Positions 9,592 to 17,938 of a DNA stretch of 64,000 bases are shown here, one piece after another. Position 1 is the first letter of the stretch, and each line of letters begins with the position of its first letter. The notes beneath the pieces were generated by a model that did no database searches, was not told the DNA's origin, and saw nothing but the letters and a program-made list of their open reading frames with translations. Position numbers and translations under genes: made by a program. This stretch comes from an uncultured archaeon (GTDB lineage Archaea > Asgardarchaeota > Lokiarchaeia > Sigyniarchaeales > SOKP01): positions 32,001 through 96,000 of the forward strand of contig CAZALK010000017.1 of the NCBI GenBank assembly GCA_964486045.1, read 5' to 3'.

Positions 9592-9718
9592 AATAAAGTA
9601 TAGGAGTTTCCGAATAGATACTTTACTCTATGATTGAGCCTAGCAAATCCTTTACCTTTGAAAGAATTAAGAAAAAGTAAGAAAACTAGAATAAGATATA
9701 AATAAGAATATTCTTTTG

Positions 9719-9727
9719 TTTTTATAA
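9719..9727 (+). promoter_or_regulatory. Putative TATA box of the trp leader/operon
   Basis: TTTTTATAA centred about 26 nt upstream of ATG 9750. An alternative TATAAATA lies at 9698-9705. Confidence 0.5.
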
Positions 9728-9749
9728 CTAAAAATATATGATTTTAAAT

Positions 9750-9800
9750 ATGGCAACTGTAAAATCTTCTGCTTGGCGTTGGCAGTGGCCTTGGCGTTAG
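9750..9800 (+). CDS. Putative trp operon leader peptide MATVKSSAWRWQWPWR (alternative in-frame start 9738 adds MILN)
   Basis: ATG GCA ACT GTA AAA TCT TCT GCT TGG CGT TGG CAG TGG CCT TGG CGT TAG: four TGG codons, about 160 nt upstream of trpD, same strand. Confidence 0.85.
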   Translation: MATVKSSAWRWQWPWR

Positions 9801-9840
9801 ATAACGTCCTTTCATTGGTTTAGATCATATCGATATCTCT

Positions 9841-9929
9841 CGTTTTTATTATTTTTGTTAAAACTTAACAAAAAGTTATTTTGCTTTCTTTACTGTGCGT
9901 TTTTATTATTGACACCCAATTATGAAACG
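9841..9929 (+). terminator. Candidate attenuator/terminator: U-tracts, perfect 10-bp inverted repeat, 13-nt direct repeat
   Basis: TTTTTGTTAA-AAC-TTAACAAAAA (9852-9874) followed by a T-rich run; CGTTTTTATTATT at 9841-9853 and 9898-9910. Confidence 0.5.
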
Positions 9930-9961
9930 AAACACAAAAAAAGAGTAAAACATGGAGTAGT

Positions 9962-11032
9962 TTGTTTAAAATGTCAGAAGCACATGAAAAAATAATTGAT
10001 GCAATAAAAAAAATATCTCAAAATGAAAGTCTATCAACTACGGAAGCAGAAGATGTTATGAGTGAGATAATGTCTGGAAAGGCAAAAGATTCTCAATTAG
10101 GTGCCTTATTAACTGCTTTAGTAATGAAGGGTGAAACAATTGAAGAAATTACGGGTTTTGCAAGAATAATGCGAGAATTCGCAAATGTTATTAAACCAAG
10201 TGTCGACAGTGAATTATTAGACACTTGTGGGACTGGGGGAGATAAAATAAAAACCTTTAACATAAGTACCATTTCAGCTTTAGTAGTAGCAGGAGCTGGT
10301 GTTTCTGTAGCAAAACATGGGAACCGAGCCGTGACTAGTAAATGTGGAAGTGCTGACTTATTAGAAGGATTAGGTGTAAAGATAGATTTACCACCTGAGG
10401 ATGTTAAGAATTGTATTGAGAAAATAGGATTAGGATTTATGTTTGCTCCTCTTTTTCATCCTGCAATGAAGTATGTAATGCCAACTAGAAGAGCTCTAAA
10501 GATAAGAACTGTATTCAATATACTAGGACCTTTAACTAATCCTGCTAATGCTAAATATCATGTGTTAGGTGTATTTCGTAAGGATTTGGCACCCGTTATG
10601 GCAAAAGTATTACAAGATCTAGGAGCAAAGCATGTTTATACGATACATAACTCTTGCGGTATTGATGAATTAGCGCCAGTGGGAATAAATTATATAACTG
10701 AATCGTATAATGGAAATATGGAAACCTATGCAATTACTAATAAAGATTTTAAAATCCCAGATTGCTCCGTAAATGATTTACTAGCAGGAAATCTTGATGA
10801 TAATATTAGAATTGCTTTAAAAATATTAAAAAAACCAGATTTTAAAGCTAAGTATAATACAATTCTGATGAATGTAGCTTTAGCGTTAAAATGTGGGGGC
10901 ATTGCGACTGACTTTGAAGAAGGTATATCAATCGCTAAAAACACGATAGAGTCAGGTAAAGCTTTCGAAAAGCTTGAAAGTTTCATTGAAATTACTGGTG
11001 GGAATAATAATAAATTGAAGAGTTATTTATAG
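9962..11032 (+). CDS. trpD: Anthranilate phosphoribosyltransferase (start may be ATG 9971)
   Basis: DTCGTGGD, FNIST, KHGNRAVTSKCGSAD, RTVFNILGPLTNPA. Confidence 0.97.
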   Translation: MFKMSEAHEKIIDAIKKISQNESLSTTEAEDVMSEIMSGKAKDSQLGALLTALVMKGETIEEITGFARIMREFANVIKPSVDSELLDTCGTGGDKIKTFNISTISALVVAGAGVSVAKHGNRAVTSKCGSADLLEGLGVKIDLPPEDVKNCIEKIGLGFMFAPLFHPAMKYVMPTRRALKIRTVFNILGPLTNPANAKYHVLGVFRKDLAPVMAKVLQDLGAKHVYTIHNSCGIDELAPVGINYITESYNGNMETYAITNKDFKIPDCSVNDLLAGNLDDNIRIALKILKKPDFKAKYNTILMNVALALKCGGIATDFEEGISIAKNTIESGKAFEKLESFIEITGGNNNKLKSYL

Positions 11033-16726: not shown

Positions 16727-17938
16727 ATGGCTGAATTAAGGTACTTCTTTGCTTATGAACTGGAAGATACAGGGGAACGGAAAGAAATTTTTTTCTCTGA
16801 GAAGGATTTAGCACAGTATCTTTATCCAGAGCAAGTCTTAGTGCTAGTTCGAGAAGATTTAAGGAGAATCTTCATCTGGAAAGGCGCCAAATCACCGATA
16901 AACAAGAGATTTATAAGTTCTAGAATAGCTCGAGATTTGCAACAAGATTTAATGAAGGATGCTCGTTATCATCGATGTAAAATTGTATCTGTTGACCAAG
17001 GAGATGAAATTCAAGAATTTCTTGATATTTTTAACCTAAAATCAATGGAAGTTAAAGAAAGATTAGCGGACATGAGATATGTACTTAATAGGGATAAAGA
17101 GGTGATTGAAAAAAAGGTAGTATACCCAGAAAAGAAAGAATATAGGATTAATAAACATCTAACGCTAAAATTAATAGAGGGACAAACTGAAATTTATATT
17201 GATGAGAAACCCTTTCATCAATGCAAATATCTCCTACTTAATCTCACTCAAAAAGATTTTGCTAAGTTTGATCACATTGACTCAATTGATGAAGCGTTTG
17301 AGATATATAACAAGATGGATAAAAATCATGAAGGAGATCATGATCTAATTGATCCTGAATCTGAATTTATTGGTCATTGCTCTAATCTCCAAGCATGGTA
17401 TGAACATGACTATAATCTAAGAATTCTGCACAGCAGCTTGTCCATCCCCTTACTCAAAAAAATGGCGTTCTTAGGAGATAAAAAGGCCATTATTAAATTA
17501 AAAGAAAGCATTGCAACTAGGATTGCATCAAGACATTATAATACCATTATTTTTTACTTGAATGAAAAATACCTTAGATTATTTTCAAACGAGGAATTGG
17601 AAGTAATGTTTGAAGATTGGCTTGACAAAAACGTTGAATTCGCTTTCATGGAGAAAAGAAGGTTATGGTATCCTCTTCTTAAAGAATTGATTGATAGGGG
17701 AATTACCAGGGCACAGAAAATCATTAAAAAAGAAATCGTTTTATATCTAATAGAAGACAATTTTGAGGCCTATCGATATTTATTGAATAGTGATTTTATC
17801 AAGCTCATTAACTTAGAAGATCTTGAGGAAGTCTATGAACTAATTCCAAAAAAAGATATGGTTGCATTAAGACGAATTGAAAATCTAATTCTCAAAGCCA
17901 CACTTAAAGAGAGAAGAAATTTAAAAGAAGAAAATTGA
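16727..17938 (+). CDS. Gelsolin-like domain fused to a Lokiarchaeia-type C/H-motif domain and a helical region
   Basis: VLVLVREDLRRIFIWKGAKS...VDQGDEIQEF is gelsolin-repeat-like; then QCKYLLL...SIDEA...EFIGHCSNLQAW. Confidence 0.65.
   Translation: MAELRYFFAYELEDTGERKEIFFSEKDLAQYLYPEQVLVLVREDLRRIFIWKGAKSPINKRFISSRIARDLQQDLMKDARYHRCKIVSVDQGDEIQEFLDIFNLKSMEVKERLADMRYVLNRDKEVIEKKVVYPEKKEYRINKHLTLKLIEGQTEIYIDEKPFHQCKYLLLNLTQKDFAKFDHIDSIDEAFEIYNKMDKNHEGDHDLIDPESEFIGHCSNLQAWYEHDYNLRILHSSLSIPLLKKMAFLGDKKAIIKLKESIATRIASRHYNTIIFYLNEKYLRLFSNEELEVMFEDWLDKNVEFAFMEKRRLWYPLLKELIDRGITRAQKIIKKEIVLYLIEDNFEAYRYLLNSDFIKLINLEDLEEVYELIPKKDMVALRRIENLILKATLKERRNLKEEN

Follow-up and report, generated by a model that had tools for sequence, protein, structure and literature searches.

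A Trp-codon leader and a conserved start/anti-start helix upstream of the trp operon of a Lokiarchaeia genome: features of a candidate ribosome-mediated attenuator

Can a ribosome that translates a short leader sense tryptophan for an archaeal trp operon, and if so, which parts of the leader RNA would take the decision? This question is raised by a stretch of 64,000 nt from an uncultured archaeon (contig CAZALK010000017.1; hereafter the window, to which all coordinates without prefix refer), in which a small open reading frame (ORF) rich in Trp codons precedes the genes trpD, C, F, B, A, E and G, running in that order from 9971 onward. Positions 9726-9970 are most likely the leader RNA of this trpDCFBAEG operon, with 9793-9929 as its downstream part. 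A preliminary description of the latter interval had proposed an attenuator of non-bacterial architecture, in which weak and mutually exclusive hairpins mask or expose U-tracts depending on the position of the ribosome. Our analysis supports the interval as part of a Trp-sensing leader-peptide regulatory RNA of an archaeon. The observation was partly confirmed and its interpretation partly supported, while the working parts differ from those proposed. We regard it as very probable that the leader is a ribosome-read Trp sensor acting in cis, and for the fuller reading, a ribosome-mediated Trp attenuator with a closed leader and a stop of transcription in U tracts, we estimate a probability of roughly 45%.

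The leader ORF (9750-9800, + strand; product MATVKSSAWRWQWPWR) comprises 16 codons, four of which are Trp codons (TGG at 9774, 9780, 9786 and 9792) near its end. It is co-oriented with and directly upstream of the biosynthetic genes, at a distance of 170 nt from trpD. An ATG at 9738 is in frame with the ORF; since the equivalent ATG of the relatives is followed by a stop, 9750 represents the conserved leader start. A Trp-rich leader ORF is present in each of the 20 close metagenome relatives whose upstream sequence suffices and in 31 of the 32 relatives from the order with enough DNA 5' of trpD, and the cultured Lokiarchaeum ossiferum also has a Trp leader at this place. The ORFs of the relatives contain 2-6 Trp codons close to the ORF end, in nearly all leaders within 1-3 codons of the stop. 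At ~130 other archaeal trpD loci, taken from Bathyarchaeia, Hadarchaeota, Hydrothermarchaeales and Methanobacteria, only ~8 chance ORFs were present, none with the alternating WxWxW pattern; this control is imperfect, as in those groups the operon may begin with a gene other than trpD. Twenty-two distinct leaders that resemble the one in the window (A-type) were aligned, and this alignment, A3, is the source of the counts out of 22 given below.

The stop codon of the leader (TAG, 9798-9800) is inside the loop of GGCGTT-AGAT-AACGTC, a hairpin designated HP-1 (9793-9808, + strand; GGCGUU/AACGUC), the 5' arm of which consists of the last Trp-Arg codons; a second GGCGTT is located at 9775-9780. 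This hairpin, already noted in the preliminary description, is beyond chance: a stop-spanning helix is predicted in 40 of 44 distinct leaders and is built from quite different sequences, such as GCACGC/GCGUGC and CCUGGCG/CGCCAGG in other lineages or UGUUGU/ACAACA in a Cys leader. Because the 5' arm is coding, HP-1 is conserved within the A-type set without significant covariation. AGA is expected as the dominant Arg codon in a genome of 31% G+C; the leader encodes Arg by CGU (9774-9800), the relatives use CGU or CGC, and the CGU choice supplies the G+C-rich 5' arm of HP-1. A U-rich tail with the conserved motif CUUUCAUUGG follows (9809-9818, + strand; conserved in alignments A1 and A3). Within this segment CAU (9813-9815) can pair with the leader AUG, and UCAUUG (9812-9817) can pair with CAGUGG of the leader (9783-9788) as a possible outer stem of HP-1; outer and inner stems are 82% paired, likewise without significant covariation.

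A lenient terminator scan flags 9793-9808 together with the tail CTTTCATTGG (one site against 0.2 expected), a weak stem of six pairs, three of them G-C, and a tail with only three consecutive U. The claim that the leader has no GC-rich stem plus poly-U was therefore half right: this one site is flagged, while no bacterial-type GC-rich terminator with a long U run is conserved. As a regulated terminator, HP-1 and its tail were rejected for their wrong logic, as HP-1 stays intact with a ribosome that stalls at the first Trp codons. We consider that HP-1 fits a pause or protector hairpin better.

The second helix, P0, spans most of the leader. Its 5' strand S0 consists of AUAUGAUUUUAAA (9736-9748) and the leader AUG at 9750-9752 (9736-9752 in all, + strand), which pair with the 'anti-start' element S1, UUUAGAUCAUAU (9819-9830, + strand), and with the CAU at 9813-9815, respectively. 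The 3' strand emerged from comparative pairing and from the centroid structure. The segment TTTCATTGG is part of P0, possibly also of the outer stem of HP-1, and not of a pairing with 9916-9929. The preliminary description was confined to its interval and missed P0, which needs the start region of the leader. Over the 22 sequences the 14-bp helix is 88% paired, with changes mostly to G-U, and its AUG:CAU part is 84% paired. Together with HP-B, a hairpin further downstream (9893-9936), P0 is 83% paired, compared to 37-46% in slid controls, and the joint covariation score of 0.198 (0.05-0.07 in the controls) was reached by none of 500 shuffles. Leaders upstream of trpB2, a TrpB-like gene, rebuild P0 with the compensatory variants AUGAUUUA/UAAAUCAU, AUGGUUUA/UAAACCAU and UUGGUUUA/UAAACCAA, and in a further type of trpB2 leader CAUUGGAUGAAAUUUAA pairs with the 5' untranslated region. 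In most relatives a U4 run directly after S1 pairs with an A4 run 5' of S0. In leaders of the B-type a long-range stem, TAGAATTTCT/AGAAATTCTA, with compensatory changes in the relatives L051, L038 and L052, was recognized by eye only. A candidate antiterminator pairing of S1 with S2 (CUGUG, 9893-9897, which resembles S0) as CAUAUUU:AAAUGUG is 89.6% compatible in the relatives and shows weak covariation (equalled by 16 of 500 shuffles); its pairing is ~0 in the footprint model of the window.

In this model, which ignores sterics, partition functions were computed for 9726-9975 and for the nascent RNA 9726-9862, and a 28-nt ribosome footprint covered each of the Trp codons in turn or the stop, or two footprints formed a disome. 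HP-1 has a predicted probability of 0.71-0.86, which falls to 0 with a footprint at the third or fourth Trp codon or at the stop. P0 reaches 0.86 in the free nascent RNA and 0.00 once a second ribosome covers the start region. The AU hairpin HP-A (9852-9874; 0.89) and HP-B (0.81-0.96) are unchanged in every footprint state. Modelled RNA structure in this leader is thus dependent on ribosome position, as is expected of a leader-peptide attenuator, and in the model only HP-1 and P0 respond to it, so that any RNA switch should lie in HP-1 and P0 and not in the weak hairpins downstream. In the relative L044 the leader folds with a z score of -3.55, and P0, HP-1 and HP-B are in its centroid structure. 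In the full-leader minimum-free-energy fold the leader start (9741-9753) pairs with the trpD start (~9950-9972). Both start regions contain UUUAAA(U)AUG, and this pairing, which may be fortuitous, competes with P0 in the full-length RNA (P0 0.48).

These results bear directly on the switch between weak hairpins that had been proposed for the interval. The four sequence features on which it was built are all correctly placed, and the complementarities do exist on paper. HP-A is a perfect 10-bp A-U/G-U hairpin on the + strand with the arms TTTTTGTTAA (9852-9861) and TTAACAAAAA (9865-9874) and the loop AAC, followed by GUUAUUUUGCUUUCUUU. A hairpin at this place (dG < -4.5) is found in ~12 of the 22 relatives and absent in ~10, which indicates from sequence comparison that HP-A is lineage-specific, and its role as a conserved terminator hairpin was rejected for the same reason. 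The 13-mer CGTTTTTATTATT is exactly repeated at 9841-9853 and 9898-9910. With at most one mismatch it has three matches in the window against 0.78 expected, a number reached by one of 100 shuffles. Its duplication reaches significance in the clade of the window alone, in which the two copies have changed together; as a weaker trend, the best spacer match to the arm of HP-B has the same offset (2-10 nt) in 11 of the 22 sequences. Positions 9916-9929 are complementary to the second 13-mer, less well to 9810-9818. The former pairing is real in the sense that the second 13-mer forms the 5' arm and 9916-9929 the 3' arm of HP-B, which is 89% paired. Pairing of 9916-9929 with the first 13-mer had a probability of 0.00 in every modelled state and was discarded. 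The same applies to CAUUGG (9813-9818) with CCAAU (9916-9920): the pairing is 84.5% compatible, yet every variant breaks it and none is compensated, the probability again being 0.00. The covariation asked of homologs was present for HP-B and P0 and lacking for the core ATTGG:CCAAT, where the variants CATAGG and CATAAG are uncompensated. A conserved second small ORF from the UUG of CAUUGG was also rejected, the lengths varying from 2 to 18 codons without conservation. The exact repeat, the first copy of which tracks the second within the clade, speaks for mutually exclusive hairpins that mask or expose the U tracts. With the alternatives at 0.00 in all states, HP-A and HP-B insensitive to footprints and HP-A absent in about half of the relatives, we give this explanation very little credence.

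HP-B itself is well supported as an RNA element. It extends with its basal extension over 9893-9936 (+ strand; stem 9898-9911/9917-9929, loop ACACC, extension UGUG 9894-9897/CACA 9933-9936). RNAalifold assigned 12 pairs to it, four of them compensatory, and in the 13-bp stem 6 of the 13 pairs change on both sides across the 22 sequences. At one position U-G is the commonest pair, which points to + strand RNA and against a DNA palindrome. This matters for the view that the conserved elements act as DNA, the 5' arm of HP-B being an internal TATA box of trpD and the palindromes (9852-9874 and ATTG-N5-CAAT) operators of the TrpY kind. The arm is indeed TATA-like in the window (TTTTTATTATT) at ~65 bp before trpD, and the stretch from TATA box to transcript start is a frequent binding site of archaeal repressors. 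However, TATA-likeness is not conserved (for example TTAATTGTGTTG in the relative L046 and ATTAATCTGTTG before trpB2). Base-pairing is kept instead, with frequent G-U pairs that would be mismatches in DNA. The palindrome at 9852-9874 is not conserved either, and no regulator gene is adjacent to the trp operon in the window. For these reasons we rejected the internal TATA box and the operators, and consider a role of the elements as DNA highly improbable.

In both trpD and trpB2 leaders HP-B lies ~35-45 nt before the regulated gene. It is Trp-specific and constitutive, and perhaps has a protective or recognition function. A mimic of the tRNA-Trp anticodon loop (UUCCAAU in relatives) was considered and dropped, as the covarying stem splits CCA and the window has C at the position of U33. 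The constitutive nature and the constant place of HP-B would suit a control after transcription, in which a ribosome stalled close to the 5' end, like that on the Bacillus ermC leader, shields the trp mRNA from exonucleases that work 5'-to-3' (RNase J or aCPSF-type), and no premature termination occurs. P0, which closes off the leader start codon and the sequence 5' of it, would then limit leader translation to the pioneer round, and HP-B would be a protective hairpin or a processing site; slow growth would make an equilibrium control on finished mRNA plausible. Such a mechanism leaves the conserved position of the U tract and the gene-end heptamers described below unexplained and does not account for the constant use of the regulatory codons as 5' arm of the stop hairpin. 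We therefore think it quite improbable.

The claim of U-tracts as a feature of the leader was borne out by the comparison. The first run of at least four T lies +24 to +29 nt past the leader stop in 18 of the 22 relatives, in a spacer that averages 53% U and 7% G. In the window the candidate termination or pause signals are the first 13-mer copy with two U5 runs (9843-9847 and 9852-9856; 9841-9859 in all, + strand) and the U-rich tract UUAUUUUGCUUUCUUUA (9876-9892, + strand), the latter being the counterpart in A3 of the conserved block UUAUUUUCUA just 5' of HP-B. Convergent genes of the genome have 3' flanks that are enriched (2.6- to 5.2-fold) in heptamers such as CTATTTT, TTATTTT, TATTTTT and TTTTGTT. 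The spacer of the window contains TTATTTT twice (9849-9855 and 9876-9882) as well as TATTTTT and TTTTGTT, which are 2.6- to 2.9-fold enriched in 3' flanks. An orthologue of the termination factor FttA/aCPSF1 is encoded in the genome (878.7 bits; cut-off 580). FttA prefers U-rich RNA and depends on the KOW domain of Spt5, analogous to Rho/NusG (PMC13681488). Judged by sequence, U-rich tracts of the gene-end kind and the factor required for an archaeal oligo-U or FttA signal are both in place, and termination inside 9831-9892 is in our view an even bet.

The same features could be explained by polarity through FttA without any RNA switch. The U-rich and G-poor spacer would be a loading zone of FttA/aCPSF1, like rut for Rho. 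A ribosome parked near the paused polymerase would block FttA and the Spt5 KOW domain, while a departed ribosome would expose the RNA, and P0, HP-1 and HP-B would be secondary, serving RNA stabilisation or limiting leader translation. Trp codons 1-3 codons from the stop in nearly all leaders, the constant distance and composition of the spacer, the presence of FttA in the genome and its preference for U-rich RNA and use of Spt5 (PMC13681488) all agree with this. However, after the pause ~100 nt of U-rich RNA would still have to be crossed without a ribosome in both conditions, and it would not be explained why P0 and HP-B are strongly conserved and covary. Moreover, the U tract of the window lies at +43, beyond the proposed contact distance. 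We consider FttA polarity as the sole mechanism unlikely.

For the attenuator with a closed leader we propose the following course. If Trp is plentiful, the first ribosome would reach the stop and leave, with the polymerase ~30 nt ahead, at the first U tract in the relatives. Ribosome and polymerase are spaced by ~30 nt in bacterial expressomes; with this spacing a coupled ribosome would reach the stop just as the polymerase sits at the conserved U tract. The empty leader would fold shut, with HP-1 nested inside P0, and the uncoupled polymerase would stop in the U tracts (here 9843-9856 and 9876-9891), be it by oligo-U termination, by FttA/aCPSF1 or by both. P0 would at the same time shut the start site of the leader. 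If charged tRNA-Trp is scarce, a ribosome would stall at the Trp codons, and a second one might queue behind it on the start site. This stalling would melt HP-1 and keep P0 open, and the polymerase would pass the U tracts into trpDCFBAEG. HP-A and HP-B would stay outside the switch.

Several points weigh against this proposal. Within the trpD set only one of the 14 P0 pairs changes on both sides, the variation being mostly G-U, and the individual P0 duplexes are modest (mean z -1.4; p <= 0.05 in 7 of 22). B-type leaders and the leader of Lokiarchaeum ossiferum showed no detectable P0. The window is itself an outlier, with its first U tract at +43 past the stop and its U runs 12-25 nt beyond S1 instead of adjacent to it, and its leader folds no better than shuffled sequences (z -0.86 and -0.58). 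In the model, in which sterics are ignored, one footprint leaves nascent P0 at 0.73-0.86. Since a single ribosome does not prevent P0 there, discrimination would have to come from sterics, from kinetics or from a second ribosome in the queue. To our knowledge, hairpin-assisted termination or pausing is not established for the archaeal RNA polymerase. Finally, the model leaves HP-B unexplained. We hold the specific closed-fold model only tentatively and with some doubt.

The Trp leader upstream of trpD is not the only one in this genome. A second and very similar Trp leader, MTLARNLLWCWQWPWRGDTALSLE (G000:C1:674420-674494; L215:221-295), lies 133 nt before the trpB2 gene (NF009057, 642 bits). 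Its ORF continues across HP-1 and CAUUGG, with its stop codon within the anti-start segment, and HP-B is present. A W-rich leader was found at 22 of the 30 trpB2 loci fetched. A poly-Cys leader, MRINYEHKVRTSTSTCCCMCCCC, is encoded on the - strand at L216:1148-1219 (G000:C25), 85 nt upstream of a gene (L216:31-1062, - strand) of the cysteine-synthase family (TIGR01136, 265 bits, below the equivalog cut-off), and is conserved in eight genomes. Its layout matches that of the Trp leader: a hairpin (UGUUGU/ACAACA) that carries the regulatory codons in its 5' arm and the stop in its loop is followed by a start-complementary segment and U6. By eye, AAGUUGAUG pairs with CAUCAAUUU directly before this U6, analogous to P0. 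Leaders rich in His, Phe, Tyr or Met were also sought across the genome, with only chance ORFs as a result.

A short ORF at G000:C34:9111-9236 (- strand) ends with LELHLLLL, 83 nt before an ORF that resembles leuA by its N-terminus, and its UUA codons are complementary to AUAAUAAUA ~50 nt downstream. The hexamer UUUCAU appears soon after the stop of the Trp (9810-9815), Cys (8-13 nt past the stop, - strand of L216) and Leu (C34, twice) leaders of this genome. It is complementary to starts of the AUGAGA/AUGAAA type and might be a pause or cleavage signal.

Taken at its widest, the proposal would be that Asgard archaea use true ribosome-mediated attenuation that is built unlike the bacterial one. 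The 'terminator' would be a start/anti-start helix before a U tract, which reads the occupancy of the leader, and oligo-U and/or FttA would end transcription, with the same layout for Trp at two loci, for Cys and possibly for Leu. We put this generalization forward as a possibility only, and at present a somewhat doubtful one.

The genome that holds the window is archaeal and of the Asgard type, has a size of 5.18 Mb and a G+C content of ~31%. Its closest named relatives are metagenome-assembled genomes of Promethearchaeota (Lokiarchaeia), and Lokiarchaeum ossiferum belongs to the same order. The leader promoter has a TATA-like box, ATATAAATA (9696-9704, + strand), which is kept in the same place in A-type relatives as ATATAAATA, TTTAAATAT or TATATATA; the usual archaeal TATA spacing of ~26 bp would place the transcript start near 9726. 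At the other end of the leader GGAG (9954-9957, + strand) precedes the trpD start codon (9971-9973), and the trpD product (9971-11032) is matched by the Pfam families Glycos_transf_3 and Glycos_trans_3N. The full trp operon is patchy in the order, with TrpD in 34 of 154 genomes and in only 5 of the 53 other genomes of the window's own genus. The trpB2 gene is nearly universal (129 of 154 genomes), so that indole or a late precursor may be the only source from which many of these archaea form Trp.

In relatives with a leader-trpD gap of 417-505 nt, an ORF of 75-99 codons lies between HP-B and trpD and ends 0-5 nt 5' of trpD. It was seen at L036:1222-1494, L040:1227-1484, L035:1194-1493, L049:2550-2831 (- strand) and others, and shares the conserved motif (M/F)LGPEK.KTA.FIA..Y. 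A Pfam search with its product from relatives gave no family, a search with one query did not find it in the genome of the window, and L003 seemingly carries a decayed copy. Directly after trpG, the ORF 16727-17938 of the window has a weak match to the gelsolin repeat (PF00626, E 3.5e-4, just under the cut-off), which fits an Asgard origin.

Leader-peptide attenuation is the textbook proof of physical and kinetic transcription-translation coupling in bacteria. If our reading is correct, a conserved Asgard device would demonstrate that such coupling is functional in the prokaryotes most closely related to eukaryotes, and archaeal termination, be it at oligo-U or through the CPSF73 homologue FttA, would gain a natural reporter. 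The Trp leader before trpD in the cultured Lokiarchaeum ossiferum makes the device testable, and the parts worth mutating are HP-1, P0 and the U tracts rather than the AU hairpin or the 13-mer pairings. Our literature searches for leader-peptide attenuation in archaea, Asgard included, found only bacterial work; their coverage was incomplete and they are no proof of absence.

Among known systems, the proposed mode of action of the device is that of a leader-peptide attenuator, and the device falls outside the trpL family. No Rfam family, including Trp_leader (RF00513), matched the window at the gathering threshold, and up to E = 10 the region 9650-10000 gave only chance matches to unrelated families, with no riboswitch or T-box. 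Nor was a classical four-segment attenuator found: the consensus fold gives only HP-1 and HP-B, with no conserved 2:3/3:4 pair. The enterobacterial trpL (RF00513) shares with the archaeal leader a short ORF with clustered Trp codons before a Trp biosynthetic operon, and the predicted logic, in which a stalled ribosome leads to read-through. In the 1:2 hairpin of trpL, as in HP-1, the regulatory codons form the 5' arm and the stop lies in the loop, and the ribosome-binding site of the E. coli leader is reported to pair with a distal leader segment. In contrast to trpL, the archaeal leader has neither a conserved local 3:4 terminator of high G+C content with a U run nor a detectable 2:3 antiterminator. 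Its main second helix is long-range and joins the leader start region to a segment just before the U tract, and its host is an archaeon, with a polymerase that terminates at oligo-U or via FttA.

The E. coli tnaC/Rho system resembles the archaeal leader in another respect, in that a long untranslated spacer poor in G comes after the leader ORF and a ribosome at the end of the leader could gate the access of a termination factor to the RNA. The logic is opposite, since free Trp induces tnaC, and the archaeal leader would probably sense hungry codons instead of using a Trp-binding nascent peptide. By analogy, the place of Rho would be taken by FttA/aCPSF1, a beta-CASP nuclease and not a helicase. 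TrpY of Methanothermobacter, a DNA-binding promoter repressor of the trp operon that responds to tryptophan, differs from the present case, where no regulator gene lies adjacent and the conserved elements covary as RNA. The polycysteine leaderless short ORFs of mycobacteria, which were described as amino-acid-specific operon attenuators (bioRxiv 10.1101/834739), resemble the Cys leader of this genome, which precedes a gene of the cysteine-synthase family; compared with the mycobacterial ORFs, the archaeal ones belong to another domain of life and have a 5' untranslated region that takes part in a conserved helix.

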